From NCBI GenBank assembly GCA_049318005.1, contig JBMOHE010000001.1, forward strand, positions 117,995-181,994: 64,000 nucleotides of DNA, given 5' to 3'. This DNA comes from Patescibacteria group bacterium. Lineage in GTDB: Bacteria > Patescibacteriota > Patescibacteriia > Patescibacteriales > UBA12465. Below the pieces are notes generated by a model. That model saw only the letters and a program-made list of their open reading frames with translations, was not told where the DNA came from and ran no database searches. Shown in pieces: positions 1,228-33,174 of this stretch (the stretch's first letter is position 1; each line of letters opens with the position of its first letter). The position numbers were made by a program, and so were the translations under genes.

Positions 1228-1299
1228 TGTAAAAAAATAAAATTTATAAGTATTTTATAAAAATATTATAACATATTTTAGGTCAAAAATACATAAAAA

Positions 1300-1917
1300 T
1301 TAAATCCATAAAACGTTTAAATTAAAAACTTGAAGCAAATAACTAGCCCCCAATAAACTTAGAATAAGAGCCAATAATATTAAGCTAATCCAGTTAATCC
1401 CCGGCCTCTTTAAAATAATATTATTAAACAATACATATATGATACCAAGGCCTAAAAATAGACCAACGAAAATGATAATTTTTGGCCAAGAAATCAATAA
1501 ACTGGCTAAAAATAATAAAAATAATTCGTTATTATTAATGAATCCTGGTCTATATTTTTGATAAATTTTAAAAACAAAAAAGATAAGTGAACTAATAAAC
1601 AGAGTGATAATATTAGCCAAGAAAAAATGGAAAAAACAATAAGAAATGAAATATGACCAAGGCTGATAAGGAGGCAGAAAAAAAACACTGAAACCATTGC
1701 CACTCCAAACGAAGTACTGAATGAGCACTAAGGAAAAATCAAAAACGGCGCTTGTTCCTAGTACAAAATAAACTAATTTTTTAAAGGATAATTTTCTAAA
1801 AATATTAAAATATTTTTGCCTAGCCGATAAAGAATGAAATATAGCTAAAATTAAAATTAAAAAAATAAAAATACTAGGGGCCCAAGCAAGAAATTGACTA
1901 AGAAAAATATTTGTCAT
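1300..1917 (-). CDS. Polytopic integral membrane protein of unknown function.
   Basis: 205-aa ORF, extremely hydrophobic with about six predicted TM helices. It has no prepilin-peptidase GDVKL or Asp motifs, so I do not call it PilD. Confidence 0.5.
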   Translation of the reverse strand: MTNIFLSQFLAWAPSIFIFLILILAIFHSLSARQKYFNIFRKLSFKKLVYFVLGTSAVFDFSLVLIQYFVWSGNGFSVFFLPPYQPWSYFISYCFFHFFLANIITLFISSLIFFVFKIYQKYRPGFINNNELFLLFLASLLISWPKIIIFVGLFLGLGIIYVLFNNIILKRPGINWISLILLALILSLLGASYLLQVFNLNVLWI

Positions 1918-1973
1918 ATATAATGCGTAAAAAAAATATAGAGTTAAAACATATTCCTATTAACAATTATAAC

Positions 1974-2010
1974 AAAAAAATAGCCCCTTAAAAAGGGGCT
2001 ATTTAAAAAT
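1974..2010. terminator. Rho-independent terminator (bidirectional hairpin) downstream of the pilin gene.
   Basis: TAGCCCC-ttaaaaa-GGGGCTA is a perfect 7-bp stem, flanked by an A-run on one side and a T-run on the other. Confidence 0.6.
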
Positions 2011-2024
2011 ATAAATTTTTTAAT

Positions 2025-2723
2025 TTAGAAATCTGTACCAGTACCAAGAATAGTTAAATCAGTACCAACTTCATAATAATTTGCATTATTACCACCGTCC
2101 TTAGACATCTTATTGTCATCTGAGGTATAAGCAGTACTTTCTAAACGTGCATCGATTTCATATTTACCAGTTGATTCCATGCAAGCATAGCGATAAACAA
2201 GGTCAGTATTAACAACTCCGCCGACTGTCATAGTATTAACTGGATCGATAGGTAAATTAGAGATTGGAGAGCCACCAGGTAAACCGCTTAGGTTAACTGG
2301 CAACCAGCCGCTAGCATTAGTTAAAGCTAAGTTAGCATTAGTTGCTTGTTTGCCTCCAAAAGTAGATGTAAAGGTGGTTGCGTCTAAAACTTTATCAGTA
2401 ATAGCTGCACCTGGAGCATCGCTTGGGTAGCTATAATAAATTTGATCTTCGCCAGTCTGCCAAGTAGCAAGAGAAGCTGTTCCCTTACAGGCGACATTAG
2501 AAGCGCCAGCCATCAAAGGAGTCGTGGTGCTAGTTGAGTAAAGGCCTAACGCAGTTTTAATAGTTGCTAAATCCGACATTCTTTGTGAGTCACGTGACTT
2601 CTTTAAAGTTTCAGATGGATCTAGTACTAAGATTAAAATAACCGATAAAACAGCGATAATCGCTATTACAATTAAAAGTTCCAATAATGTAAAACCTTGA
2701 TTTTTTGTTGTTTTTTTATTCAT
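2025..2723 (-). CDS. Type IV pilin / pseudopilin with a class III (prepilin) signal peptide.
   Basis: N-terminus MNKKTTKNQGFTLLELLIVIAIIAVLSVILIL carries the canonical G^FTLxE prepilin cleavage/methylation motif followed by a hydrophobic helix. The ORF-track start at 2753 adds 10 residues; the MNKK start at 2723 is more likely. Confidence 0.8.
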   Translation of the reverse strand: MNKKTTKNQGFTLLELLIVIAIIAVLSVILILVLDPSETLKKSRDSQRMSDLATIKTALGLYSTSTTTPLMAGASNVACKGTASLATWQTGEDQIYYSYPSDAPGAAITDKVLDATTFTSTFGGKQATNANLALTNASGWLPVNLSGLPGGSPISNLPIDPVNTMTVGGVVNTDLVYRYACMESTGKYEIDARLESTAYTSDDNKMSKDGGNNANYYEVGTDLTILGTGTDF

Positions 2724-2897
2724 AAATTTTATAAAGTGAATCAATAAATACACTTTATTTTAACGTTAAACCCTTATTATCTTACACTAATAATTTTAGC
2801 AAATTAAATAAAAACGTGCAATAATAAAACTGAAAAATATGAATATATAGGCAATTTTAGAAATATATGTTAAAATACCCCTATAATTACAAGCTAT

Positions 2898-3263
2898 ATG
2901 GGGAAAAATAATGTAAAAAAAATACTTCTTGTCGAAGATGATAAGGCGATAGCAAAGGCCCTAGGAATAAAACTCTCTCATTTTGAGGTTGACTTAGCTC
3001 ATGACGGCGAAGAAGCAATCGAGGCAATTGCTAAAAAGAATTATGATTTAATTCTTTTAGACATTATGATGCCAAAATTAGACGGCTTTGGCGTTATGGA
3101 GGCAATGAAAAAGAAAAAAAATACAACCCCAATCTTTATTCTTACTAATTTGAATCAGGATGACGATGTAAAACGAGCCAAGGATTTAGGGGCAAAAGAC
3201 TTTTTAGTAAAATCAAATATTAGTCTCCTGGAAATAGTCAATAAAATAAACAACTTTTTTTAA
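2898..3263 (+). CDS. Single-domain response regulator (CheY-like REC only).
   Basis: ILLVEDD...LILLDIMMPKLDGF...TNLNQDDDVKRAKDLGAKDFLVKS contains the acidic pocket, phospho-acceptor Asp, conserved Thr and Lys. It is a paralog of 26323..26703 at roughly 55% identity. Confidence 0.85.
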   Translation: MGKNNVKKILLVEDDKAIAKALGIKLSHFEVDLAHDGEEAIEAIAKKNYDLILLDIMMPKLDGFGVMEAMKKKKNTTPIFILTNLNQDDDVKRAKDLGAKDFLVKSNISLLEIVNKINNFF

Positions 3264-3294
3264 AAAAATCCGGAATTTACTCCGGATTTTTTTA
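3262..3294. terminator. Bidirectional rho-independent terminator between convergent genes.
   Basis: ATCCGGA-atttac-TCCGGAT is a 7-bp stem flanked by an A-run (3262-3268) and a T-run (3287-3293). Confidence 0.7.
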
Positions 3295-3318
3295 TAATTA
3301 AAAAGAAAAATTTGAGAA

Positions 3319-4008
3319 TTATTGTCCAAATAGATGACCAATATAATAACCCGCTAAAGCAGCTCCCATTCCGATCAAGACCATCTGAATCCCTGTTTTC
3401 CAAGGACTGCCAACTGTTGCCTTAGCTTTATAAATTCCCACAAACAGTAAAACAATTGCAGAAACTATCAAAGAACAGATAATCGCTGATCCAATTGGTA
3501 AAAGAAAAAATGGGGTTAAGGGAACAAAAGATCCAACTAACGCCGCAAAGCCAACCACAAAACTTCCCTGATAAATATCTTTATTCTTTATTTCAGTTAA
3601 CTCTAGCTCTTCCTTCATCATTATCTTCAACCACTGTTCATCGTTACTCGTGATTTTAGCCACGATTTCTTCTAGTAAAGCTCCGTCAAATCCCTTATCT
3701 CGATAGATTTCTCTTATTTCCTCTCTCTCTAATTCTGGCAATTCCTTAATTTCTCTTTTCTCTCTTTCTAGCTCTGAAAAATAGTGATCTCGTTCAGCCA
3801 TTTTAGAAGTTAGGGCTACCGCCGCCATCGAGATACTTTCGGCAAAAGTCGCCGCCATGCCAGCCGCAATAATTACCTTATAGCTACTAGTAGCCGCAGC
3901 GACACCTAAGATAACCCCGAGAACATTAACTAGACCATCTTGACCGCCGAGTATGATGTCAGATAGAGTTGAATTCTTCCCGACTTTAGATAATTCTTGT
4001 TTATGCAT
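3319..4008 (-). CDS. VIT1/CCC1-family (DUF125) iron/manganese transporter-like membrane protein.
   Basis: The N-terminal LGGQDGLVNVLGVILGVAAA region, a central Glu/Arg-rich cytoplasmic helix (EREKREIKELPELEREEIREIY) and C-terminal TM helices are typical of the VIT family. Confidence 0.7.
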   Translation of the reverse strand: MHKQELSKVGKNSTLSDIILGGQDGLVNVLGVILGVAAATSSYKVIIAAGMAATFAESISMAAVALTSKMAERDHYFSELEREKREIKELPELEREEIREIYRDKGFDGALLEEIVAKITSNDEQWLKIMMKEELELTEIKNKDIYQGSFVVGFAALVGSFVPLTPFFLLPIGSAIICSLIVSAIVLLFVGIYKAKATVGSPWKTGIQMVLIGMGAALAGYYIGHLFGQ

Positions 4009-4112
4009 ATATTTTATTTATTATTTTAATAATATCATAATATTTAATTTTAATGTAGTTCAAATATTGACCTCCCTCTTATTTAAATGATATACTAATT
4101 TTACAATTGAAT

Positions 4113-4222
4113 AATGTTTATTAAGAGTGCAGCGAGGAATCTAGTCCTATGACCTGCCGGCAACCCCGAAATAATCCCTTCGGTAGGTGCTTCTAGCCCA
4201 ATTCGGGAAAGATAAAGGTCAA
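4113..4222 (+). promoter_or_regulatory. SAM-I (S-box) riboswitch in the metK leader.
   Basis: UUAUUAAGAG...GAGGAAUCUAGUCCUAUGACCUGCCGGCAACC...CCGAAAUAAUCCCUUCGG...GGUGC...AAAGAUAAAGG matches the S-box P1, the kink-turn GAUGA-like UAUGACC, the GGCAACC junction, P3 and the GGUGC element. It sits immediately upstream of metK. Confidence 0.7.
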
Positions 4223-4235
4223 TTATTATTGCATC

Positions 4236-4270
4236 GGCTCTTTCCTGAACGGGATAAGAGTTTTTTATTT
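4236..4270 (+). terminator. Riboswitch expression-platform terminator.
   Basis: CUCUUUCC-ugaacg-GGAUAAGAG hairpin with one bulge, followed by UUUUUUAUUUU. Confidence 0.6.
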
Positions 4271-4298
4271 TAAAAATTAATTATCTAAATCTAAATTT

Positions 4299-5288
4299 AT
4301 GTTAAAAACAGCCGAAAGCGTTTCTCCGAGTCATCCTGATAAATTATGTGATCGAATTAGCGATGCTATTTTAGATTATTGTCTAAATAATGATAAAGAT
4401 AGCCGCGTAGCAATTGAAACAATGGGTGGACACGGACTTATAACTATAACTGGCGAGCTAACTACTAATGGTCAAATTGATTTAGGAGAAATTATTAAAA
4501 TCGCTAAACGTATTGGCGGAGAAAATAATGAAATTAAAATTAATATAATAGCACAGAGCCCAGAAATTTCACGCGGCGTTGATACGGGCGGCGCTGGAGA
4601 TCAAGGTATTATGGTTGGTTATGCTTGTAACGATAACGACTCATTAATTCCACAAGAAACATATTTAACACGTAGCCTTTGTAACTACATATACGAACGT
4701 CATCCTTATGACGGCAAAACCCAGGTTACTTTAAACAATGGTAAAATAAAAACAATCGTTGTTAGTTTTTGCAAATTGCCAAAAGAAGATATTTTAAAAT
4801 TTACTAAAGAGTGGTGGCAAAAATTATCAAATAAAGAAATTGATTTTGAAATACTGGCTAATCCAGCCGGTGACTGGAGTCAAGGCGGATTCGAAGCTGA
4901 TACTGGTCTAACAGGACGAAAATTAGCGATCGACAATTACGGTCCACAAATTCCAATCGGTGGCGGCGCCTTTAGTGGAAAAGATTCAAGCAAGGTTGAT
5001 AGATCGGGTGCCTATATGGCGAGAAGGATTGCGGTTGATTTATTAAAAGAAAATGATTTTAAAGAAGTTATAGTAAAAATAGCTTATGCAATTGGAAAAA
5101 AGGAACCAGTCATGACTAGCTTTGAGGCGACTAATAATAAAGATGAAAAAATCTCCGGCGAAATAGATAGCCAAAAATACGACTTAACCCCCTTGGGAAT
5201 TATTAATTTTCTAGAGTTAAAAAATCCTCAATTTGAAAAGACGGCTGAATGGGGATCATTCGGACATGGCTTTACTTGGGATAAATAA
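4299..5288 (+). CDS. metK: S-adenosylmethionine synthetase (compact, 329 aa).
   Basis: AESVSPSHPDKLCDRISDAILD (the GHPDK motif), GAGDQGIMVGYA, and GGGAFSGKDSSKVDRSGAYMAR (the P-loop-like GGGAFSGKD signature). Confidence 0.9.
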   Translation: MLKTAESVSPSHPDKLCDRISDAILDYCLNNDKDSRVAIETMGGHGLITITGELTTNGQIDLGEIIKIAKRIGGENNEIKINIIAQSPEISRGVDTGGAGDQGIMVGYACNDNDSLIPQETYLTRSLCNYIYERHPYDGKTQVTLNNGKIKTIVVSFCKLPKEDILKFTKEWWQKLSNKEIDFEILANPAGDWSQGGFEADTGLTGRKLAIDNYGPQIPIGGGAFSGKDSSKVDRSGAYMARRIAVDLLKENDFKEVIVKIAYAIGKKEPVMTSFEATNNKDEKISGEIDSQKYDLTPLGIINFLELKNPQFEKTAEWGSFGHGFTWDK

Positions 5289-5364
5289 ATATATTTCCTC
5301 CGAGCTAAAAGTAAACTTAAATAAATCTTCAGAAAATTCTCTATTTTTGCTATACTAAATATCT

Positions 5365-6162
5365 ATGAAAAATACTAAGAAAATTGGCCTAGCTTTAAGT
5401 AGTGGCGGAATTCGCGGTTTTGCTTTAATTGGCGTTCTCAAAGCCCTTGAAGAAAATAATATATCAATTGATATAATTAGCGGCGCTTCAAGTGGTTCTA
5501 TCGTAGCCGCACATTACGCGCTTTATAAAAACTCCGACTTACTAAAAGAGGCAATTATAAAAAATTCTATAAAACTTCCCTCTATTTGGGATCTTGGTTT
5601 TAGGGGCGGATTAGTTAAGGGAAACAAACTTAAAAAACTAACCACAGAAATGTTTGGAAAAAATAAATTTTCAAATACAAAGATACCCCTTGAAATAGTC
5701 GCGACTAATTTACGAGATGGCGGAGAATATATTTTTTCTAAAGGTGAAATTGCTTTTAGTGTTCAGGCTAGTTGCGCTGTTCCAGTATTATTTGAACCAG
5801 TAAAAACCAAAAATCAATCTTTCGTTGATGGCGGATTAAGCGATCCTGTTCCCGTCAAAGCTCTAAAAAATATGGGAGCCGATATAACTATTGCGGTCAA
5901 CCTTTATCATAAAAATGAATTTATCAATAGAAAGTTTACGGTTATTAAAGTTGCTTTACGGAGCTCAAGAATTGCAATATATAATCTCGCCCAACATTCT
6001 ATTAGAGAGGCTAATATCGTTATCGCACCAGATTTATCTGAGTTCACACTTGATAATAAATTAAAAAAACATACGAGCACACTTGGAATTGAAAAAATTA
6101 TAAAAGTTGGCTACGAGGAAACCTTAAAGCATATTAAAGATATTAAAAAATTAATAAAATAA
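5365..6162 (+). CDS. Patatin-like phospholipase.
   Basis: The oxyanion GGIRG, the nucleophile elbow GASSGS (GxSxG) and the catalytic DGG in SFVDGGLSD. Confidence 0.85.
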   Translation: MKNTKKIGLALSSGGIRGFALIGVLKALEENNISIDIISGASSGSIVAAHYALYKNSDLLKEAIIKNSIKLPSIWDLGFRGGLVKGNKLKKLTTEMFGKNKFSNTKIPLEIVATNLRDGGEYIFSKGEIAFSVQASCAVPVLFEPVKTKNQSFVDGGLSDPVPVKALKNMGADITIAVNLYHKNEFINRKFTVIKVALRSSRIAIYNLAQHSIREANIVIAPDLSEFTLDNKLKKHTSTLGIEKIIKVGYEETLKHIKDIKKLIK

Positions 6163-8832: not shown

Positions 8833-11800
8833 TTAAGCCGCCATTACTTCGTCGGAACTATTAACTGACGAAGTCTTTTTTAAAGTTTTCTGCATTTCTT
8901 CGACAAAATTTAAAAGTAACTCTTGAGCCTGATTAATTAAAAACTTATCGCTGGCTCCCTGTATATAATATTTACCCTTTCTTGTCTTACCATCAAGATC
9001 AAAAATTGACTGTTCAGAATCATGAATGCCATTAGAATCCGGAAAGCCATTTTCCATGGTTGTGTTAAGCATGTTTTTAATATTTACTTGATCACCCTTG
9101 AGATAAAGATTATTTAGACGTGTTAATTTATTAGCTATATCAACACTAATCTCGCCAAAGAAATCTTCAACCTTATTTATTTTTAATTTTTTTTCATAAT
9201 ATGTTTCTAGGTAATCTCCAGGAGAAGATGCGTCAATTATTTCTTGAAAGGCTGTTTTATTATCACGACCACGTGAGGATTCAATAGCGTCAACCCAAAC
9301 TCCTTGCTCATCCAAATAGCCATAAGTTTCATTATCGATAAAATTTTCATTATGATCTTTAATCGCCTGCGTCATTTTTATTTGTACTTTTAGCCAATGA
9401 TAAATTATTTCTTTAATTTTTTCATCTTTTATATCTTCTTGAAGTATGTCATTCTCTTTTAAAAAGATATAAAAATTATTACTATTATCAAGAGAACTCT
9501 GAGAAATATTTTCAAATTTTTCTAAATTATTTATTCTTGTATATTTATCGACTGCTTGAATCGCAATTGCCGCATTATAATTAATTAAAGAAGCTCTTTC
9601 AAATTGTTCCCATTTATCTACTGATATCGCTCTTAGTTCAACCGCACTTGTTAAATTATCAAAAACCTTAATAGTATTTGTTGACGTGCCTCTATTACGA
9701 ATACTGCAGCCGCATCTGGCCTTACCAATTTGACTGACTTCCGTCCCGGAATATACTCCGCCTAAATTAGCTGCTAAAATCATGTTTTGCAAAAAATTAG
9801 TTTGACGATTCAAACCTAATCCATATTCGCCGCCAATCGTTAAATGATAAGTTGAACTAGCTCTATCATAACCGCCCTCTTTATCTCCAGACTTAAAATT
9901 AAAATCAATAAAATCAAGATCTTGGAGTAACTTCATTTCGAGAAGCATTAGATATGGATTATCGGTTGGCTTAGTGGCGAATTCATGAACAGCGTCATTA
10001 CCCTTGCCAATATTAGCATTAGCACTCAATTTATTAGCGTCACCGGAGTATGAGTTGCCGGTCTTTTCTTTATACGAGCCAGCAATCGAGCTGGTCACCT
10101 CATATTCCATTCCAATCGAAGCCTGCAAGCCAGCTGGTATTTCTTTAGGGTCGTGCAGAGACAATATTCTATCATATCTTTCTAGGGCACTCTCAATATT
10201 TATCAAAACTAAATCAATCGTCGTTTTATCATCTTTCTCAAAAGCTTTTTTATATTCATTAGCGGCAACTAAATTTAAAATAGTCTCCCCCTTGCCGCTA
10301 ATATTATATTTTTTTCTAAACTCAATAAACTTTTCTGACAATTTCTCTCCTGATACCTCATCAATAACCTCAATGTTTTTATTTTTAATTATTGAACTAA
10401 AAATTGATGAGAAATCAAGAATACTTTTTCTAGAATTATCATTTGAAGCTAAAATTTCATCAAGATCTTTAAAATGCTCTGCTTTATAAAGGCCAAGTTT
10501 ATTTAATGTGCTGTAAAATGATATTAGAGAGCCATTATCCCTCTTATCACTATCCATCAACTTAACTTCATTTTTTAATTTTTGGATAATTAAATCTTGC
10601 TTTCTTTCAACAATGCCAATAATAGAAGCCGATCCGCTCTCAATAATCTGCAAAAGCGGACGCGTATTCTCTTTTAAGATTATTTCCTGAATAAATTTTT
10701 CTTCAAAAATTTCAGGATAGGCCGCATAGATTTCTTCCGCTCTAGAACTATCACTAAAATTTCCGTCGCTAATATATACAGACATCAACGTATCTATCTG
10801 ACTATCTGATAAAGTAAAAATGTCTATATTATTTTTACCAGCAATTTTTTCTCTATTTTCATTTAATTCAAGATATTCAACTAAAAATTTTCCGCTTGCA
10901 TTTCTTTCTTTGCTAATTTTATCGACAATCAAATTAATTTGATCATTATTTAGAATATTTACCAATTCTTCGCTTTTATGATTAATATTCCTAAATGAAT
11001 CAACATACATCGTAAAAAACTCTGGGGCCATTTCTCCATGTTTAGAAACAAAATCATCAACAATTATCTCCATCTTTTCTTTGCCTATCTTAAAATATGG
11101 CGCATAAATATTGTCTTCAATGGCGGCAATGAACTGATCTTGATTATTATTACTTAAATTTTCCAGAATCGATTCAATTTTTTCCTCGCTCAAATTAAAT
11201 TCCTTATTAATTTTTAATAAATTAAATAAACTTCTACTTCTTAGGCTGGCCCGGCTAATCAAAATATCTGCTAACTTATCTTTTTCATTATCATTTAGAC
11301 TTAATCTGTCTCTATCATAAAAATAAATGTTAAATAAAGCATCAAGCGCTTCCGGATCACCGGAATCAAAAATTTTATTTTTAACAATCAAACTTTTTTC
11401 GGGAGACAATTTTTCTAAATTTCTATCAGTTTTACTTGGATAACCATATTTTAACAAGGTAACTAATTCAAGCGGCGAGCCTTTATCTATCATTACCTCA
11501 ACTAATTCGTCTATTTTTTCGAGGCCCACTGAACTAGAATAATTCCCATTTATGTAACGAATATAATTAGGGAAAGATTTTAAGAGTTCTAAGCGGGAGT
11601 TACTATCGCCGAAGCTTATAATTTTATCAACTACAATCTTTAAATTTTTTTCACTAATATTTCTTTCCAAAAAATCGCTTAAAACAGAGATATTATTAAC
11701 TTCCAAAAAAAGACTAACTAAGTTATTGCTCTCATCGAGTTTAAAATGTTTTATAAATGGACCTTTATAAGTCGAACTATAAAGTAAATTTAAATTTTTT

Positions 11801-13911
11801 AAATCAACTATTTTTAAAAAATTATAGCAGAATTTTAGCTCATCTTGATCGACAAGAACTAATTCTTTATTATTAATTAATTCAAGTATTTTTTTTAAAT
11901 CCTCTATATCATTTGATTCAATAAACTTACTGAAAATATCTGCTTTCATTTCCGGCTTGTTCTCTGCTATTTTTGATCCAAGGATCTTGGTTATTGACCA
12001 AGAAGCGCAGGTTTCATTAATTATTTCATCATAACGCTCCAAACTTATTTTTCCTGAATTAAGCGAAACGTTTAAATAATCACCAAAAGCCTTATAATCA
12101 TCAATTTTACCCACCAATTCTCCAAAATATTTAATCGGTAAGCCTGGTGTTCCATCCTGACAGTTAATAAACAGATCGAAAAAATCACTACAATAAATAT
12201 TTTTAACCAGTTTAATCGCGGCCTCTAAATTATCAGAGGAAAATTCATTAAGAACCTTGGCGTCTCTCAAACTTAGATTATTAATATAAGATATTTTCTC
12301 AACGACGATTTTTTCAATCTGGCCTCTATCTTTAGGACTTAGATACTGGTGATTATAATTTAAAAAATCTAAAGCTACAGACGGCCAGGGGTCAGTAAAA
12401 CAGGTTTTAATAAATTCTTCTTTTTGATTATCACTAATTTTAATATCATTATAAAATATTTTGCTCAGCGTCTCTGAATTATTATTCTTCTCTAAAAAAT
12501 TACTAAAACTTTTATTAATAACTTCTAATCCTAGACCGGGATATTTTTCTGGATAAGCTAATAATTGAGCATATTCGAAGACCTTTGAGCTACCGCAATT
12601 TTCTAAGTTCTCTAGTATTTCTTTTTGTGCCGCTTCATCTAAGCCAAAATTGTCAGCGTTTGTTAAAAGTGGAAGAGAATCATTATTTCCTTTTACATTA
12701 AGAATTAAATTATCCAAACTACTTTTATCGTCGTTACTATAGCCAATAGAACCAAGGGCGTAGTTAAACTCATCTTGGTTTAATTTAATACACGAACTAT
12801 ATCTTAATAATTCAGATGAATATTTAACATTATTATCAAAATATTTTTTTCTCTCGCCTCCCTCCAATTTATCTATCTCTTCTTGAAATACAGCTGCATT
12901 ATTATTAATCAATCCTGGATTATTTTTTAAATATTCTTTAAAGACAACTTCCTTAATCTCGGGAGTCAAATCTTTTCTAAAAATATCATCACTTAAATTA
13001 ATTTGACTTAAAGAATAATGCTTGTCCGGGTCAGAGATTACTTTCTTTAGTGGTTCTAAAAATTCATTATCTTTTCTATTATCAGTTTTTTCATAACAGC
13101 CCCCTTCGCCAAGAACCAAAAGAATAATTTCTGGGTAAGCTTCCAAGCGTTTTTTAATAATCTCCGCCTCCTTTTTATGGTCAGCGCTATCATATGAAGA
13201 TTTTATACCCGCTTCATCTAAAATATATTTCCTTATTTTTTTTCCAAGAGACGGGGCCGCATCGCGATTAATAATTTTATTTGGGCAATCACTCCAAATC
13301 TCAAGCGCTTCCTCTATTTTACCATTATCTATTTTATGGGAAATCAAAGTATCAAATTGCGATTCTAGTTTAAGATCAAGTGATTCGGCGTTACGACCAT
13401 GAAGATACTTTTTATCTATCTCGTGATATTTATTCAAATAGTTTAGTAAACGTTTCTCAAAATTAAGATAATAATCATTTAATTTCTTAGCATTACCGCC
13501 ATCTCTCTCTTTTTTATATTTATCAATTTTTTCTCCATAAAGCTCGTGACCCATGTCAGCCAAATCACTATATAGTTTTTTATAAGATCTATTATTTTTA
13601 ATTTCATTCCATTTATAATCCGCTTTGTCGATTATGCTATCAAATAGCTTCATCAATTTACTTTCACTTTTTTCCTCAATCGCCTTAATTTCAACTTCTG
13701 CCTGATCACAAATTTTAACAATATCTTCATCATCATTTTTTTCTAAAATTTCTTTATTTTCTTTAAGCGACTCATCTAAAGCACTGTCTAAATCAGAAAA
13801 AGACTCCCCGGCTATATCAGAGATCTTCCCTTCATTCTCCGGATTATTTTCAAAATTAGAAAAAGACTCCTTTTTTGATATTTTTTTAGATACCTCAACT
13901 TTATTTTTCAT
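8833..13911 (-). CDS. Giant hypothetical cytoplasmic protein (1692 aa) with no recognisable domains.
   Basis: Uninterrupted 5.1-kb ORF, Lys/Glu/Asp/Asn-rich, with no TM or signal peptide. Only a weak CGCSIRNRG-containing region near the C-terminus and no catalytic motifs I can identify. Confidence 0.7.
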   Translation of the reverse strand: MKNKVEVSKKISKKESFSNFENNPENEGKISDIAGESFSDLDSALDESLKENKEILEKNDDEDIVKICDQAEVEIKAIEEKSESKLMKLFDSIIDKADYKWNEIKNNRSYKKLYSDLADMGHELYGEKIDKYKKERDGGNAKKLNDYYLNFEKRLLNYLNKYHEIDKKYLHGRNAESLDLKLESQFDTLISHKIDNGKIEEALEIWSDCPNKIINRDAAPSLGKKIRKYILDEAGIKSSYDSADHKKEAEIIKKRLEAYPEIILLVLGEGGCYEKTDNRKDNEFLEPLKKVISDPDKHYSLSQINLSDDIFRKDLTPEIKEVVFKEYLKNNPGLINNNAAVFQEEIDKLEGGERKKYFDNNVKYSSELLRYSSCIKLNQDEFNYALGSIGYSNDDKSSLDNLILNVKGNNDSLPLLTNADNFGLDEAAQKEILENLENCGSSKVFEYAQLLAYPEKYPGLGLEVINKSFSNFLEKNNNSETLSKIFYNDIKISDNQKEEFIKTCFTDPWPSVALDFLNYNHQYLSPKDRGQIEKIVVEKISYINNLSLRDAKVLNEFSSDNLEAAIKLVKNIYCSDFFDLFINCQDGTPGLPIKYFGELVGKIDDYKAFGDYLNVSLNSGKISLERYDEIINETCASWSITKILGSKIAENKPEMKADIFSKFIESNDIEDLKKILELINNKELVLVDQDELKFCYNFLKIVDLKNLNLLYSSTYKGPFIKHFKLDESNNLVSLFLEVNNISVLSDFLERNISEKNLKIVVDKIISFGDSNSRLELLKSFPNYIRYINGNYSSSVGLEKIDELVEVMIDKGSPLELVTLLKYGYPSKTDRNLEKLSPEKSLIVKNKIFDSGDPEALDALFNIYFYDRDRLSLNDNEKDKLADILISRASLRSRSLFNLLKINKEFNLSEEKIESILENLSNNNQDQFIAAIEDNIYAPYFKIGKEKMEIIVDDFVSKHGEMAPEFFTMYVDSFRNINHKSEELVNILNNDQINLIVDKISKERNASGKFLVEYLELNENREKIAGKNNIDIFTLSDSQIDTLMSVYISDGNFSDSSRAEEIYAAYPEIFEEKFIQEIILKENTRPLLQIIESGSASIIGIVERKQDLIIQKLKNEVKLMDSDKRDNGSLISFYSTLNKLGLYKAEHFKDLDEILASNDNSRKSILDFSSIFSSIIKNKNIEVIDEVSGEKLSEKFIEFRKKYNISGKGETILNLVAANEYKKAFEKDDKTTIDLVLINIESALERYDRILSLHDPKEIPAGLQASIGMEYEVTSSIAGSYKEKTGNSYSGDANKLSANANIGKGNDAVHEFATKPTDNPYLMLLEMKLLQDLDFIDFNFKSGDKEGGYDRASSTYHLTIGGEYGLGLNRQTNFLQNMILAANLGGVYSGTEVSQIGKARCGCSIRNRGTSTNTIKVFDNLTSAVELRAISVDKWEQFERASLINYNAAIAIQAVDKYTRINNLEKFENISQSSLDNSNNFYIFLKENDILQEDIKDEKIKEIIYHWLKVQIKMTQAIKDHNENFIDNETYGYLDEQGVWVDAIESSRGRDNKTAFQEIIDASSPGDYLETYYEKKLKINKVEDFFGEISVDIANKLTRLNNLYLKGDQVNIKNMLNTTMENGFPDSNGIHDSEQSIFDLDGKTRKGKYYIQGASDKFLINQAQELLLNFVEEMQKTLKKTSSVNSSDEVMAA

Positions 13912-27289: not shown

Positions 27290-27892
27290 CTATCTTCCCG
27301 AACTAAAGTCATCTGTTTTCAAATCTAATTTTCTTAGGAAACCATTCGCTGCTGCGATATCCCCATCAGACGCGGCTGTATAGGCATTAACATAGTCCGC
27401 AAAATTCTCAGCATTAACCGAAGCCATTGTGCTTGCTCCAACAAGACTCCTCCATGCCTTATAGTCGTTAGACTGTATAGCATTTTTTATTGTTTGGCTT
27501 TTAGAAGATGATTGAAAAAAACTTTTCTTTAGACCTAAAGATATTTTTATTGGATTTGCATCTTCAACATTACCCTGCTTAAGAAGCCTATAGGCGTTAG
27601 TAAAACTCGAAAAATTTTGTTCCGTCACCTTACTTTTTATATTTTCATCACTCACTAAGACACTCCAGGTTTCATAATCATTGTTCATGATAGCCGAATC
27701 TATTTGCGCATTTTTAGCTTGAGTAAGAGCGATGCTAATTCTTACTCCGGCAAAAGCGGCTACTGGAAGCAAAAAAACCGCTAACAAAAATATTCCAACT
27801 ACCAAAGACTTCTTGTATTTTTTTGTAAAGTTTTTAACATTAGCAAAAAAATCATTTTTTACATTTTTTTGATCCTTAATTTCATTCTTCAT
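27290..27892 (-). CDS. Membrane-anchored protein with two tandem ~45-aa repeats.
   Basis: N-terminal TM (LVVGIFLLAVFLLPVAAFA); internal repeat NDYETWSVLVSDEN...FSSFTNAYRLL versus NDYKAWRSLVGAST...FADYVNAYTAA. Confidence 0.55.
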   Translation of the reverse strand: MKNEIKDQKNVKNDFFANVKNFTKKYKKSLVVGIFLLAVFLLPVAAFAGVRISIALTQAKNAQIDSAIMNNDYETWSVLVSDENIKSKVTEQNFSSFTNAYRLLKQGNVEDANPIKISLGLKKSFFQSSSKSQTIKNAIQSNDYKAWRSLVGASTMASVNAENFADYVNAYTAASDGDIAAANGFLRKLDLKTDDFSSGR

Positions 27893-27959: not shown

Positions 27960-29195
27960 TTATACGCCCTGATTAAAGACCAGAGTGCTATTTTTATAGT
28001 TATAATCAAAAGCTGATTTAAATTTCTCTATTATCATGACATCATCAGTTAAAATAGCTGATTCATCATTGTAATAAGAGCCCGCCTTACTCCAGTTATT
28101 CGTTCCAAACAATATTTTACTATCGTCAACCATTAACATGTGGTAATGAAGAAATGGGTCAACTACGTTAATTATGTTGTTCGGCTGATTATTATTTATG
28201 CTGAGTGGGGTGCTAGAAGCATCCATTAAAATTTCTAGATTATCTAATTTTAATCTCTTCTTTTCATCGTTTAAATAAGAAAAAGCTGAACTTTTATTTA
28301 TAATATTAAATGAATCGCCAATAACAATGACTCTAACGCCAGCACTAGCTCGATTTATCAATTCAGCTGCTAAATTTCTATCTGTTAAGTCCCAAATCAT
28401 AATTTTTATGCTGTTTTTAGCCTCCTTAATCAACTTATAAAGACTATCGTTTATTCCCTCGTTATGACGGCCTGGACCAAATAAAACTGTATATTTAAAT
28501 TTTCCAGCTATAAGCTCTAGGTCCTTGGGATTATATGATTTATTATCCAGCTTCTTTATACCTGATTCTCCAAAGCTTAATCGATCAAATTCATGGCCAA
28601 AACTATTAACTAGCCAATGACTACCAGTTAAAAAAAGAAAACTCTGATCATACTCGTCCTGAATTTCGGTCCAATTATTAGAACCAAATATTAAGCGTTC
28701 ATTATTTTCTCCTCTATCTATCAGGGCAAATTTATGATGCATTAAAACAGAATAAGTAGTACTGGAGCTTCCCAGATCTAAGCGTTTTATGGCTAGAGGT
28801 AAATCAAGCCACAGAACATCATTGATCTCTTTTTTATGTAAATCGAAAATTAAAGTTACCTTTACTCCACGATCTACCGCCCTATACACAGCCTCTTTTA
28901 TGCTTTGCGATTTAAAAGAATAAACAGCGATTTCTAAACTCTTACTAGCCTTATCAATTTCCTTAATTATTAAAGGCGAGAATGAATTAGTGCTGGAGGC
29001 GTAATTAAAATATATGTTGCTTTCTACTGGCTCACTAGTTTTTACAATTTCCCCTAAATCATGACTCATAAATATACTACCCAATAGGTTATATGACTCC
29101 TTGGCCAGCCAAGCTAATAACAAGATACTAAAAACGATTACTATTAATATAATAGCTTTATTATGAACTATTTTTTTTAATTTTCTAAATTTCAT
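27960..29195 (-). CDS. PLD-superfamily protein (two HKD-type motifs, the second degenerate) with an N-terminal signal-anchor.
   Basis: Motif 1 HHKFALID...GSNNWT (HxKxxxxD...GSxN); motif 2 HYHMLMVDD...GTNNWS (K replaced by H); N-terminal TM IILIVIVFSILLLAWLA. Overlaps the upstream gene by 11 nt. Confidence 0.75.
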   Translation of the reverse strand: MKFRKLKKIVHNKAIILIVIVFSILLLAWLAKESYNLLGSIFMSHDLGEIVKTSEPVESNIYFNYASSTNSFSPLIIKEIDKASKSLEIAVYSFKSQSIKEAVYRAVDRGVKVTLIFDLHKKEINDVLWLDLPLAIKRLDLGSSSTTYSVLMHHKFALIDRGENNERLIFGSNNWTEIQDEYDQSFLFLTGSHWLVNSFGHEFDRLSFGESGIKKLDNKSYNPKDLELIAGKFKYTVLFGPGRHNEGINDSLYKLIKEAKNSIKIMIWDLTDRNLAAELINRASAGVRVIVIGDSFNIINKSSAFSYLNDEKKRLKLDNLEILMDASSTPLSINNNQPNNIINVVDPFLHYHMLMVDDSKILFGTNNWSKAGSYYNDESAILTDDVMIIEKFKSAFDYNYKNSTLVFNQGV

Positions 29196-30894
29196 AATAA
29201 TTATTATAATTTAGCAGATCGCGGCGCCCCTTAGAAAAAAAAACGAGTGAACTATCTTTGAGCTCCTTCTCCAAAAGAAGAAGCAAGGCGTCGATTGCGG
29301 GATCATTTAAATCGAGCCAATAATTATCAATAGTTATAAACTTCGGTTTTGTCTGAAGACAATGAGCAACTTGTAATAGTAAGCAACTTTTTGAATTAGT
29401 AATAAACTTATCAGCCCTTAAGCGCCAATCAGCTCTTTCAAAAAATATATCTTTCAATTCTTTATGGCTGTTAACTAAGTTTGAAATGCTTAGCAAGTCA
29501 TCGGTCTTAACTCTATCCTTTTCTTTCCCGGCCACTATTTCCAAAATACTGCGTCCACTTTTAAAGGCCGGGTCTATATAATATGAACCAGAATACGCTC
29601 TAAAAAAATCATTATAGTAAAAACGTTGCTTATCCGCTTTAATTATCCAAGCATGACGATTAAAATCACTTCGCCCGGCAAATAATTTTGCCAGTTTCGT
29701 CTTTCCGCTTAATCTATCGCCACTTATTAAATATCGAAATCCAACAATAAACTCAAATGATAAATTCTTATAATATTTAGACTTTTTATAAAGTTTTGTT
29801 TTTGAGCTTTGAAAAATTAAACTTTTAAACTTATGTTTTATTAACTTATTAAGGGGCCGTATGCCTTTAGGCGGTATGGACAAAATTAATCCGAATAGCA
29901 GCGGGACCGAATAGAGTCCAACTCGTAAACTTTCAAACAGTAAACGTGAGCAATAGATTATTAAAATTATCAATAAAAAGTTATTATCGGGACTAACGGA
30001 AAGAATTGCGCTTATCTCCTGTCTATAATAACTAATTAGCCAGCTAAAGAAAATAAATATAATAAACAAGATGCTTGATCCAAACTTCAACCATAGGTCA
30101 CGGCGAACTCTAAAATAAGAATCCAATTTTACCAAATTATTAAAATCGGACAGAGCCTGATTCTCTCGACGAAAAAATTTTGTAAACTGCCAATCTGATA
30201 ATGAAAAATCTACTAATTTAATAACTTGGGAATAAAAAGTAGTTTCTTTAATAACATATTTTTTTGCAATAAAAAAAGCGCTAATCATTACTAGAGCGCT
30301 CAATATTAAAGATAATATTAACCACCAAAGAAGCTTCGGTCCAAAAATAAAACACAGAATAATAAATATAAAAACTAGAAGAAGCCAACGGACGGAGCCG
30401 AGCAGGCAGTTTGTTAAGCCAGAAGAAAGCATCGGCAAATGGTATGATATTTTAGCAAGCAGTCTCCCCTTTTTTTCTAAATTATATTCGTCATTGGTTT
30501 GAGATAATAATGATTTAAACCAATTTTCGCGTAAATTATTAATTAAGCGAATAACGGCCGTTTTTTCTAACTTAATTGCCAGATAAGACACAACTAAATA
30601 TAAACTTGCCGCCCCTGCAATAACCAACAAGGTTACAATCAGACTTACTTTAGTAGTCGATATTGCTCCTGATTTAATATACTGATGGCTGATCAATATT
30701 AAAATTATTTCTAAAATTCCCTGCCCAAAAATAAGAGCTAAAGTAAAAAGAATTATTTTTTTTTCTTTTTTAAAAAATTTCAAAAGATAATTAATATGCT
30801 CCCGTAAAGGACGCAGGGATTGACGACTCCAGCGCTCGTCTCTCAATTCACGTAAAAATTTAATTTGTTCATCGGCCATATCCATAAATAACAT
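29185..30894 (-). CDS. ABC exporter-like fused TMD-NBD protein with a degenerate nucleotide-binding domain.
   Basis: Six TM helices with long cytoplasmic loops (type I exporter fold); Walker A ISGDRLSGKTKL is present, but the ABC signature is replaced by ITNSKSCLL and Walker B by FITIDNYW (no catalytic Glu). Overlaps the RT gene by 26 nt. Confidence 0.7.
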   Translation of the reverse strand: MLFMDMADEQIKFLRELRDERWSRQSLRPLREHINYLLKFFKKEKKIILFTLALIFGQGILEIILILISHQYIKSGAISTTKVSLIVTLLVIAGAASLYLVVSYLAIKLEKTAVIRLINNLRENWFKSLLSQTNDEYNLEKKGRLLAKISYHLPMLSSGLTNCLLGSVRWLLLVFIFIILCFIFGPKLLWWLILSLILSALVMISAFFIAKKYVIKETTFYSQVIKLVDFSLSDWQFTKFFRRENQALSDFNNLVKLDSYFRVRRDLWLKFGSSILFIIFIFFSWLISYYRQEISAILSVSPDNNFLLIILIIYCSRLLFESLRVGLYSVPLLFGLILSIPPKGIRPLNKLIKHKFKSLIFQSSKTKLYKKSKYYKNLSFEFIVGFRYLISGDRLSGKTKLAKLFAGRSDFNRHAWIIKADKQRFYYNDFFRAYSGSYYIDPAFKSGRSILEIVAGKEKDRVKTDDLLSISNLVNSHKELKDIFFERADWRLRADKFITNSKSCLLLQVAHCLQTKPKFITIDNYWLDLNDPAIDALLLLLEKELKDSSLVFFSKGRRDLLNYNNYYEI

Positions 30895-32080
30895 TTAAAA
30901 AATATTTATAAACTGAAGAGAGATGCATGTTTTTAAGCTCTGTTTCTAAAAGTCTTCTATTTTTAGGCGTATAGGTTTTAAAAAAATATCGTGTTAATAT
31001 ATGAAAAAAATTTTCCGACAAAGCTCTTATTTGCTCCCCGTCATTTACTAATTTTTTTTGTTTAGCTATTTCACGAAAATCGACTAATAGATTATTATTA
31101 CTTTGAGATAATACTGACCGCAAATAGTTCTTTTTTCTCGCTAAACTTTTAAAATTATAATAATTAAACTGAGAACTCCAACGAAGTAAAGTGTGTTTTA
31201 AAAATCCCTTGTTTAAACTTACTAGCCCCGAGTCGAAACTATAACCGAGGTAATCAAATTTTTCTGCAGCGGTAATGTATTTCGTTTTACTAGAACTAAC
31301 CATGAGCCCTAATTTTTTTGTTTCAGAAATCAAGTAGTCATAAAGAATTTTTAAACGATCCTTATTCTTATCCATAATAATTAAATCATCACCAACGCGA
31401 CGATAAAAATCAGAATTTTTTCCACAATATTTATCAAATTCGTCTAAATAAAGATTGTTAAATAAGCCGATTAGGGGGGTGCCAGTAATTAGACCAAACT
31501 TCGGATTAATAATTTCTCCATCGCGAATAGCCTTTGGAGAAACGAATAATGACAAAAGCTTTACCATGGGCTCGCTAAAACCCATGTTTTTAATTTTATT
31601 TATTAATATATCAAACTGAATATAGGAGCTATAGTCGGCCATGTCAGAGACAATTAAAGAATCTCTTTTATAATATCTTTGATAATGGCGAACCGTACTT
31701 CGACCGGCAAAATAGCTCGGGTGAGATTTTCTATAAGAAAAAAGCCAAGGCGAAAAATAATTATCAAAATATGGTTCAACTATTTGATAAACTGCTTGCG
31801 CCTTGACTCTGTCTTTAAGATTATAAATATAAATTTCCCGCATCTTCCCGGGCTTATTCTTTTTGGGAATTCTAACTAAAATAGCCGGAGAAAGCGAAGT
31901 AAAATTTATAATTTCGCTCTGAACTTCTTTTATTAATTTAGCTGAACTGATCTCTAAATCACTAAATTTTAAATTATCCCAACCAGCATATCTTCCCAGG
32001 CGATTATCGCTTTCCATCTGCTCAATCAGATTTAAATAAGCTTTCTCTATATTTTTTTTATCAATTATTTCATTAAACAT
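30869..32080 (-). CDS. Reverse transcriptase (prokaryotic retron / group-II-like / unknown-group clade), 403 aa with all seven RT motifs and a thumb-like C-terminus.
   Basis: Motif 1 ILVRIPKKNKPGKMREI; motif 2 LKDRVKAQAVYQI; A LIVSDMADYSSYIQFD; B GLITGTPLIGLFNNLYL; C YRRVGDDLIIM (YxDD-type GDD); D LKILYDYLISETKKLGL; E FDYLGYSF. Confidence 0.85.
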   Translation of the reverse strand: MFNEIIDKKNIEKAYLNLIEQMESDNRLGRYAGWDNLKFSDLEISSAKLIKEVQSEIINFTSLSPAILVRIPKKNKPGKMREIYIYNLKDRVKAQAVYQIVEPYFDNYFSPWLFSYRKSHPSYFAGRSTVRHYQRYYKRDSLIVSDMADYSSYIQFDILINKIKNMGFSEPMVKLLSLFVSPKAIRDGEIINPKFGLITGTPLIGLFNNLYLDEFDKYCGKNSDFYRRVGDDLIIMDKNKDRLKILYDYLISETKKLGLMVSSSKTKYITAAEKFDYLGYSFDSGLVSLNKGFLKHTLLRWSSQFNYYNFKSLARKKNYLRSVLSQSNNNLLVDFREIAKQKKLVNDGEQIRALSENFFHILTRYFFKTYTPKNRRLLETELKNMHLSSVYKYFLNVIYGYGR

Positions 32081-32091
32081 AAATCGAGTTC

Positions 32092-32352
32092 CCTAGCTGC
32101 TACTTCTAGTCTGGCCGGACCTTAGCGGACGACCATTATTTATACAAAGAGTACGATTTAATCGCATGGCTCCGTAGAAATACGGAGCTGTGCAGCGCAT
32201 GGCTCTGTAGAAATACGGAGCTGTGCAGTAGAATTGTACATAATCAACCCATCAATTACTACCGACATTAGCGGCTTTTTTAGTAACAACCAATTGATTT
32301 TTAATGTCTCAAGGAGAATTAACTCTTTTGATTTTTAGAAGTAGCAACTAGG
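32092..32352 (-). ncRNA. Candidate structured non-coding RNA associated with the RT (retron msr/msd-like). A domain of about 225 nt is closed by 18-nt inverted repeats, and the proximal repeat ends 12 nt upstream of the RT start codon.
   Basis: Inverted repeats CCTAGCTGCTACTTCTAG (32092-32109) and rc of TTAGAAGTAGCAACTAGG (32335-32352) match 16 of 18 positions, with tandem palindromic 33-nt units inside. The strand is uncertain: a G•U wobble in one hairpin favours the plus strand, but the repeat's position next to the RT start favours the minus strand. Confidence 0.35.
32163..32228. repeat. Tandem direct repeat, 2 × 33 nt, each unit an imperfect palindrome (hairpin).
   Basis: CGCATGGCTCCGTAGAAATACGGAGCTGTGCAG (32163-32195) and CGCATGGCTCTGTAGAAATACGGAGCTGTGCAG (32196-32228) differ at one position. 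Each folds as GCa..GCTCCGTA-gaaa-TACGGAGC..TGC. Confidence 0.85.
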
Positions 32353-32560
32353 AAATTAGAAGTCTTACTTAACAAAATTACCCCATAAATACATTATATA
32401 TGTTTATTAGTAATTAGTAAACCAAGCTATTTCGTCAAGAAAGAAGTGAAAAATTAAGAATATAATAATTAGACGACAAAGGCAAAGTGTGCTGGAATAA
32501 AAAAAGTATACTGAAATAAATAATGCCACAGTCCGCCGGCGATGAGACTACTGCGAGACG

Positions 32561-32596
32561 AAAAAAAATCTTACTTTTTAGTAAGATTATAAATTA
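32561..32596 (-). terminator. Rho-independent terminator of the NUDIX / tRNA-Ser transcription unit.
   Basis: AATCTTAC-ttttta-GTAAGATT is a perfect 8-bp stem; read on the minus strand it is followed by U8. Confidence 0.75.
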
Positions 32597-32598
32597 AA

Positions 32599-33057
32599 TT
32601 ATAGCGGTTTATAATTAAACTCTTTGACAGTCAAACCATCGGCGCTAAGTTTAATTTCAGCTTCAATTTTTTCTCCTGCGAGTATAAGCGGCATCCACAT
32701 AGCATCATCTATCCACATTTCGTCAAATGGAAGATTGGCTATGGAGCGCCATTGAGGGCTCATCTCTTCGGTTTCAATAGGGTTCCCCTTCCAAACATAA
32801 AGTAAAAACACATAACAATCAAAAACATGATTTTCATCAAAGTAAAAATGAATTAAAGCAACTTGTTTAAGATTGTCTTCGCTAGTAATAAGGCCGGACT
32901 CCTCTTTAAGTTCACGGATAGTAGCCATCAAAGGGCTTTCATTCTCTTCGATTTTTCCCCCGTAACCATTTAATTTATCACAGCCGAAGCCACGCTTCTT
33001 TAATCCTAAAAGAATTTGTTCCTCGTTAATACAATAACAAAGAGTTGATTTTTCCAT
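32599..33057 (-). CDS. NUDIX hydrolase.
   Basis: Nudix box [24 protein letters not shown] (GX5EX7REUXEEXGU). I place the start at MEKS (33057), because the ORF-track extension to 33135 would overlap the tRNA. Confidence 0.8.
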
Positions 33058-33089
33058 ACTATTGCCTTTTATAATGTACAAAACAAGTG

Positions 33090-33174
33090 CGGAGAGACAG
33101 GGATTCGAACCCTGGGTACCTTTCGGTACACACACTTTCCAGGCGTGCGCACTAGACCGCTATGCGACCTCTCC
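33090..33174 (-). tRNA. tRNA-Ser (anticodon GGA), class II with a long variable arm; CCA not encoded.
   Basis: The reverse complement is GGAGAGG-TC-GCA-TAGCGGTCTAG-TGC-G-CACGC-CU[GGA]AA-GUGUG-UGUACCGAAAGGUACC-CAGGG-UUCGAAU-CCCUG-UCUCUCC-G. It has a 7-bp acceptor stem, U33, A37, a 16-nt variable arm, a T-loop TTCGAAT and discriminator G. Confidence 0.85.

Follow-up and report, generated by a model that had tools for sequence, protein, structure and literature searches.

Modules in which a reverse transcriptase (RT) is paired with a non-coding RNA (ncRNA), such as retrons, DRT2, DRT9, and DRT10, have each revealed unexpected DNA synthesis and have become genome-engineering tools. The ncRNAs of DRT9 and DRT10 lie upstream of their operons and contain short conserved single-stranded templates, and the basal stem (SL1) of the DRT10 ncRNA is needed for its stability (PMC11974808; 10.64898/2026.04.29.721553). 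The locus analysed here, part of a 64-kb stretch of DNA referred to below as the window, also combines an RT with an upstream structured RNA. It differs from the known modules in its group-II-like RT lineage and its unusual catalytic motif and is spread across the CPR radiation. As far as sequence comparison can tell, the description that suits it best is that of a free-standing group-II-like RT of a new lineage, equipped with a dedicated ncRNA. The protein-coding genes of the module in the window are:

30869..32080, minus strand: RT, 403 aa, Pfam RVT_1
29185..30894, minus strand: ABC-exporter-like membrane protein with a degenerate nucleotide-binding domain; the ORF overlaps the RT stop
27960..29195, minus strand: tandem Nuc/Zucchini/NucT-like PLD-family protein with an N-terminal signal-anchor

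A structured RNA upstream of the RT gene

The RT gene (30869-32080) is on the minus strand, and the repeats that drew attention to the locus therefore sit upstream of it. The earlier note had described a long inverted repeat enclosing tandem 33-nt hairpin units, and a repeat search recovered both. The arms of the inverted repeat extend to 25 nt (32084-32108 and 32336-32360; 84% complementary, 227 nt spacing). The two tandem units (32163-32195 and 32196-32228) are 97% identical with one mismatch, and they directly abut without a spacer, which agrees with the earlier exclusion of a CRISPR array. Apart from the tandem itself, the window contains no match to the 20-nt hairpin core, 0 being expected by chance. 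Fold prediction on both strands, proposed earlier as a check, showed that the 520-nt intergenic stretch folds better than its shuffles on each (z = -4.5 on the minus strand, -6.3 on the plus strand).

Read on the minus strand, the paired alignment cells of the whole family contain 157 G-U and 34 A-C combinations. This excess of G-U over A-C identifies the minus strand, in the sense of the RT, as the functional RNA strand. An RNA of the plus strand with GAAA loops is ruled out by this asymmetry and by the orientation relative to the RT at all loci. The loops of the tandem hairpins are therefore UUUC; the GAAA-capped hairpins of the first reading belong to the wrong strand, and the C/T difference between the copies, previously thought to be kept as a G-U pair, turns the upstream copy's pair into an A-C mismatch when the minus strand is read. 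A weaker outer inverted repeat (32107-32120 and 32530-32549), which had also been suggested, is absent from the repeat search output and is not conserved. Its distal arm (32530-32549) lies upstream of the promoter-like site listed below. In the related locus L077, a tRNA-like sequence that matches the 3' end of a tRNA in the window stands some tens of bases before the RNA and occupies the expected place of this arm. The outer repeat has no support beyond chance.

Together with the comparative data below, these results point to a discrete ncRNA gene on the minus strand, with a structured product of approximately 270 nt, and the inverted repeat is, by its covariation, the closing helix (P1) of this one RNA. 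The parts are, from 5' to 3':

32393..32421, minus strand: promoter-like site, -35 TTTACT, 17-nt spacer, -10 TATAAT; 10 of 12 matches, by consensus only
32084..32360, minus strand: structured ncRNA in full, out to the ends of P1, RT-sense, from covariance model R1 and family alignments
32336..32360, minus strand: 5' arm of the closing helix P1; double changes at 18 of 18 core pairs, 94.9% of cells paired
32331..32335, minus strand: J1/2, conserved A-rich junction, consensus A(A/C)AAC, no conserved G
32308..32332, minus strand: P2 hairpin, extended in the window lineage, from family alignments
32302..32307, minus strand: pseudoknot 5' strand ACAUUA, pairs with UAAUGU at 32265-32270
32242..32299, minus strand: P3 domain (P3a-d); the loop of its terminal hairpin GCCG[CUAAUGU]CGGU holds the pseudoknot 3' strand (32265-32270)
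32153..32241, minus strand: hypervariable GC-rich cassette, with the tandem units (32196-32228, 32163-32195) and a small P5-like hairpin (32153-32165)
32135..32152, minus strand: conserved 3' single-stranded segment ACUCUUUGUAUAAAUAAU; family motif YUCRUUG..AUUUAAYU..AU
32112..32135, minus strand: P6 hairpin; 8 of 8 pairs with double changes
32084..32108, minus strand: P1 3' arm, contains SD-like UAGGGA (32090-32095) and ends a few nt before the RT ATG (32078-32080)

The length of P1 varies from 14 to 31 bp across the family. In the adjoining junction, alignment A5 shows no or almost no variation at A20, A21, and C22. RNAalifold predicted 55 pairs from 16 close loci, 48 of which show compensatory change. 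When the named structure was imposed on 32 family members, 90.5% of the cells were paired, compared with 34-46% in controls with slid partners, and 53 of 55 pairs of this structure change on both sides in the 32-sequence alignment. In the same alignment the 6-bp pseudoknot, whose 5' strand is of the GCAUUA type in the family, is paired in 100% of the cells, and each of its six pairs shows AU<->GC exchanges; RNAalifold recovered this helix independently from a second alignment. A covariation analysis across homologous loci, another check proposed at the outset, gave double changes at 18 of 18 pairs of P1. A scan for covariation indicative of extra tertiary helices returned isolated, clade-driven column pairs only. 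As judged from these alignments, the RNA fold is under strong purifying and compensatory selection across deep divergence.

Conservation and linkage to the RT

The RT has approximately 105 cluster-level homologues, and the source names given for them are Patescibacteria/CPR lineages. A scan of species-representative genomes yielded 74 RT loci, and the RTs of the aligned loci range down to ~34% identity to the RT of the window. In the 16 closest loci, the 230-310 nt upstream of the gene are alignable. Iterated nhmmer searches with the 5' domain gave 43 hits in 39 loci, and all 43 lie within 700 nt upstream of an RT and on its strand, with none elsewhere in the ~0.9 Mb searched. The covariance model R1 (185 positions), built from 19 other loci with the window left out, finds the copy in the window over its full model length (32099-32345, minus strand; 77.5 bits, E = 6.5e-14). 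Its 55 hits in 0.94 Mb are, by their coordinates, all upstream of an RT on the RT strand. Both searches combined place the RNA in at least 47 of the 74 loci, and in several further loci a P1-like stem occurs together with this junction. Comparison of the loci shows that a conserved pseudoknotted RNA gene, as predicted from the alignments, is specifically linked to this RT. The earlier note had named conservation at orthologous RT loci as decisive for its repeats, and here its two elements part company: the RNA that the inverted repeat closes is present in at least 47 of 74 loci, whereas the tandem unit is different or absent in all relatives. The helices, the pseudoknot, and the variable insertion site are defined well enough for direct tests to be designed, and the RNA is a candidate for submission as a new RNA family.

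Homologous modules also occur in genomes with labels other than CPR, namely a member of the Longimicrobiales (L046, on a 2.96-Mb contig), two Omnitrophota (L023 and L026), and a MAG labelled as Flavobacteriaceae (L051). L046 carries the signature of P1 plus junction, too. These modules could reflect horizontal transfer or mis-binning. Some MAGs contain two or three divergent paralogous RT modules (L001 and L005 in JBAXPN01; L036, L043, and L052 in CAYOAT01; L015 and L040 in JBAZBP01).

The variable cassette and the tandem hairpins

Between P3 and the conserved 3' segment, the RNAs carry a cassette of 9-111 nt that is richer in GC than the core (0.51 vs 0.37). As a rule it forms between one and three strong hairpins, many of them perfect, and no two lineages have the same ones; in minimal RNAs of 177-185 nt only 9-20 nt remain, with no stable hairpin. 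Two contigs from the population of the window (L075 and L076) have an identical RNA. In L077, whose RT is 80% identical to that of the window, the core is nearly identical and the cassette is unrelated and shorter. Since the cassette is replaced outright in so close a relative, the tandem is private to the window lineage. Comparison of the loci shows the tandem hairpins to be a recent duplication at a variable insertion site. They do not characterise the family, and the cassette in which they sit is absent or different in all relatives. A duplicated cassette hairpin is found in L008 as well, and an inverted pair in L001. In the closely related L005 and the first copy of L059, the cassette hairpins are preserved through compensatory change, which marks them as selected structures, albeit outside the conserved core. 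A dispersed repeat of the REP or MITE type was also considered and rejected, because the tandem unit is absent elsewhere in the window and in the JGI metagenome contigs.

Many cassette hairpins, for instance those of L015 (~5886-5925), L001 (~5840-5890), L083, and L082, form GC-rich palindromes without a mismatch over 10-23 bp, with lineage-specific sequence. Such perfect palindromes suggest either frequent de novo generation or strong selection for a perfect duplex, for example as the site of a double-strand-specific RNase.

The reverse transcriptase

In comparisons with profiles of PDB entries, the RT of the window scores highest with the group II intron RT GsI-IIC (131 bits), followed by DRT9 (75), DRT2 (54), G2L4 (~50), and the retron RTs Ec86/Ec78 (26-30). 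Its predicted model (pLDDT 90) matches GsI-IIC best (TM 0.75-0.80), then DRT9 and G2L4, and the retron RTs reach a TMq of 0.43-0.49 in the fold search. The protein is below every curated family cutoff: among the NCBIfam models it obtains 107 bits with TIGR04416 (group II intron RT/maturase; cutoff 300), 36 with Drt2 (cutoff 390), and 23.6 with retron_St85_RT (cutoff 235). In PADLOC, the generic RT model (114 bits) exceeds UG26 (95), UG17 (67), and Drt9 (42). By sequence profile and predicted structure, this is a free-standing group-II-intron-like RT that is encoded outside an intron and is not of the retron type.

The catalytic motifs are unusual. Motif C (residues 226-232) reads R-V-G-D-D instead of YxDD, and motif A (residues 146-154) reads D-x-x-D-Y-[S/T], whereas group II intron RTs have YADD and D-x-x-x-F-F. 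A Ser or Thr is aligned with the steric-gate Phe of GsI-IIC in 28 of 34 RT members. DY[ST] and GDD resemble motifs A and C of RdRPs, and two homologues (P0071 and P0078) have precomputed Pfam RdRP_1 matches. Given VGDD and the Ser/Thr at the steric gate, the product of the RT may be other than ordinary DNA. The possibility of a DGR was rejected: a repeat search found no template/variable repeat pair near the RT, and motif 4 is GTPLIGLF instead of the SQ type found in DGR RTs.

Partner genes and genomic neighbourhood

In nearly all 74 loci, the genes for the RT, the ABC-like protein, and the PLD-like protein lie side by side, including loci in which their order is rearranged. The ABC-like protein has an MsbA-type fold, of which Pfam detects the membrane domain only. 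Its Walker A motif (GxxxxGK) is kept, and its Walker B motif has Asp-Asn instead of Asp-Glu. The family is co-distributed with the RT and well separated by score (at least 490 bits within the family vs 64 bits for ordinary ABC exporters). In the PLD protein the first HKD motif is intact (H153, K155, D160), and the second is invariantly H350-x-H352...D357, a His replacing the Lys. Its N-terminal signal-anchor suggests an extracytoplasmic location. By homology and gene order, RNA, RT, ABC-like protein, and PLD nuclease are a conserved four-part module in CPR/Patescibacteria. We know of no account that pairs an RT with an ABC-exporter-like protein and with a Nuc-like nuclease that is secreted or anchored, and to our knowledge very little has been learned about the molecular biology of CPR in general. 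A full-text search of literature mostly outside the subscription journals, which included the UG/Abi survey, found no description of an RT-RNA-ABC-PLD module.

The genes that flank the module are syntenic within clades. Considering this synteny and the seemingly extracytoplasmic PLD protein, a housekeeping or envelope role fits as well as defence. In the clade of the window, the neighbourhood looks envelope- or surface-related, as judged by the encoded proteins. A mobile island was considered and rejected, as adjacency of the module to tRNA genes is merely occasional and the RT was found on one contig only among viral contigs.

Next after the module, loci of the window clade encode a conserved ~200-aa membrane protein without a Pfam match (27290-27892, minus strand, in the window) and cupredoxin-like proteins. 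Giant proteins of ~1,880 aa flank the module. In L008, this neighbourhood is represented by 10166-12036 and 35-5677.

A candidate role as scaffold or template

The RNA may be the cognate scaffold or template ncRNA of a new RT system, analogous to the RNAs of retrons, DRT2, DRT9, and DRT10, an explanation in which we place about as much belief as doubt. Transcription would begin just upstream of P1. As the alignments show, the RNA folds such that P1 encloses the A-rich junction, P2, the 6-bp pseudoknot, P3, the conserved 3' single strand, and P6. By analogy with retrons and the three DRT systems, the RT would bind the conserved core and copy a conserved single-stranded segment into cDNA. Its best matches, GsI-IIC by sequence and fold and then DRT9, place the RT among the template-using polymerases. 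As the cassette is dispensable in many members, the conserved single strand is favoured over it as the template. P1, as the closing helix of this anatomy, would stabilise the RNA. It would also limit translation of the RT from read-through transcripts, because its 3' arm covers the SD-like motif near the ATG. The tandem hairpins, a lineage-specific duplication in the varying cassette, would be peripheral and outside the conserved mechanism.

Among the closest known systems are the class 2 UG/DRT systems (DRT2/UG2, DRT9/UG28, and DRT10/UG17), which share with the present module a structured upstream ncRNA closed by a basal stem, an RT without an extra enzymatic domain, and conserved single strands (the templates in DRT; J1/2 and the 3' segment here). 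Moreover, DRT10 also pairs its RT with a membrane effector (SLATT), and DRT9 is the second-best structural neighbour of the RT of the window. However, the RT scores far below the Drt2 cutoff, and the UG models rank below the generic RT model. The RNA fold is different, the partners are ABC-exporter-like and PLD/Nuc-like proteins, and the hosts are CPR with clade-level synteny. Inspection by eye of the conserved single strands for a template signature revealed no consistent ACU...ACU or ACA...ACA flanking repeats and no homopolymer or U-tract.

Gene or leader

Alternatively, the RNA might act purely in cis as a regulatory leader, with the RT operon controlled from its 5' UTR through termination/antitermination or through occlusion of the SD and ATG. 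In this case binding by the RT may serve autorepression, much as LtrA binds DIVa of the group II intron, and the RNA would have no role as template or scaffold. We consider this rather unlikely, albeit worth weighing. The RNA is always found in cis, upstream of and on the same strand as the RT, and terminators follow P1 at some loci. In addition, the SD-like motif is part of the P1 3' arm, which stops 5-14 nt short of the RT ATG or overlaps it, and masking of this motif fits a leader equally well. In L007-L011, however, an intrinsic terminator (GC-rich hairpin plus U-tract) stands between P1 with its SD-like motif and the RT ATG. The terminator-like hairpin and U-tract end 2-4 nt before the start codon in these loci. 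This leaves no room for an SD, and expression of the RT must need read-through or an alternative start.

Further evidence against a mere leader comes from five loci in which a second complete RNA copy, with a different cassette and a conserved core, stands in tandem upstream of a single RT (L005, ~921-1196 and ~1228-1515; L059, ~5390-5662 and ~5694-5990; L032, 5519-5703 and 5821-5999; L034, 5629-5802 and 5817-5990; L058, 5612-5770 and 5797-5988). The extra copies have no ORF behind them, and the first copy of L032 ends in its own intrinsic terminator. The terminators in L007-L011 and the extra copies without an RT directly behind them argue for a discrete gene rather than a mere leader. Likewise, a multi-helix fold of 170-290 nt with an invariantly paired pseudoknot far exceeds what occlusion would need. 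As for a promoter, the promoter-like site in the window lies ~35 nt upstream of P1, and other loci have a -10-like box, often TGnTATAAT, 1-20 nt before P1; in 11 of them an extended box of this kind stands 1-13 nt before P1. Because the DNA is AT-rich, these boxes at the other loci are suggestive at best.

Relation to retrons, telomerase RNA, and group II introns

The earlier note had compared the locus to a retron msr/msd. The layout on which the comparison was based, an a1/a2-like repeat abutting the RT, has proven to be a real, covarying helix; membership in the retrons is contradicted by the RT type and by the lack of a branching G. A retron-like mode of action nevertheless has to be weighed. 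P1 would then correspond to a1/a2, and P2, the pseudoknot, and P3 to an msr-like handle for the RT, an assignment that we regard as unlikely. It is likewise doubtful that the 3' half including the cassette would be converted to hairpin ssDNA, primed from a 2'-OH near P1. The order of parts (closing helix, conserved stem-loops, variable strong hairpins, and a 3' arm adjoining the RT start) does mirror msr-msd, as do the conserved 5' half, the variable hairpin in the 3' half, and the combination of an RT with accessory genes. Moreover, GC-rich and often perfect cassette hairpins that are kept by compensatory change (L005 and the first copy of L059) would be expected if the hairpin matters. By profile and fold scores, however, the RT is outside the retron RT clade, and it lacks the retron signature VTG in its sequence. 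The junction A(A/C)AAC provides no conserved branching G 3' of the 5' arm; a terminal G on the P1 5' arm is seen in 4 of 42 RNAs, and L015, from the subclade of the window, has CCUG-AAAC. Typical retron a1/a2 repeats are shorter than the 14-31 bp of P1. Finally, the RNA described here contains a pseudoknot, and its cassette is dispensable, with only 9-20 nt and no stable hairpin in many members.

The core of telomerase RNA has the topology of an enclosing helix, a single strand, a hairpin, and a pseudoknot. The present RNA, in which an enclosing helix leads to a short conserved single strand, a hairpin, and a pseudoknot, resembles it by analogy only: there is neither homology nor a sign of repeat addition, and what the RT has in common with TERT is no more than the general RT fold. 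The authors of the DRT9 work draw the same parallel to telomerase RNA. In a more far-reaching scenario, the module would represent a retro-system found throughout the CPR and distinct from both retrons and DRTs. A group-II-derived polymerase with RdRP-like residues in its active site (D-x-x-D-Y-[ST] and VGDD, lacking an aromatic steric gate) would rely on a telomerase-like RNA core to copy a short template over and over into a repeat polymer, possibly one containing ribonucleotides. The ABC-like partner and the extracytoplasmic Nuc-like partner would handle or export this polymer, in an envelope or host-interaction role rather than in phage defence. We regard this scenario as speculative and improbable.

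The RNA could also be what is left of a group II intron, with decayed intron domains around an intron-encoded RT, although this is very improbable. The closest relatives of the RT in sequence and fold are indeed group II intron RTs, and GsI-IIC matches it over fingers, palm, thumb, and C-terminal domain. However, in place of ribozyme domains the locus has a dedicated non-intron RNA, which is selected as its own fold among RTs down to ~34% identity. Rfam intron models gave no match at E <= 1-5 in the window or in two other loci (L010 and L033). The ABC-like ORF overlaps the RT stop, so there is no room for domains V/VI. The Rfam negatives and the gene layout effectively exclude an intron remnant. 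A search of the RNA against all of Rfam 15 gave sub-threshold chance matches only in the window, L010, and L033, even at permissive thresholds; the CRISPR-DR models matched below threshold, elsewhere in the RNA and not at the tandem. G2L4 is a distant match to the RT (~50 bits), and we know of no ncRNA for it. Chance or simple repeats, or a minimal CRISPR- or REP-type element unrelated to the RT, can hardly be credited: the tandem unit is private to the population of the window, as such an explanation would have it, but its copies abut without a spacer and are not dispersed in the window, and for the fold as a whole this is refuted by the conservation and covariation around them. By RT type, RNA fold, and gene content, the module fails membership of the retrons, the class 2 DRTs, and the group II introns.

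Further upstream in the window, an 85-nt tRNA with a long variable arm (33090-33174, minus strand) overlaps the N-terminus of a NUDIX ORF (32599-33135, minus strand). Owing to this overlap with the listed N-terminus, the true start of the NUDIX protein is probably an internal Met (MEKSTL...). At ~32563-32590 (minus strand), a hairpin plus U-tract that the consensus scan did not call resembles a terminator of the NUDIX gene.
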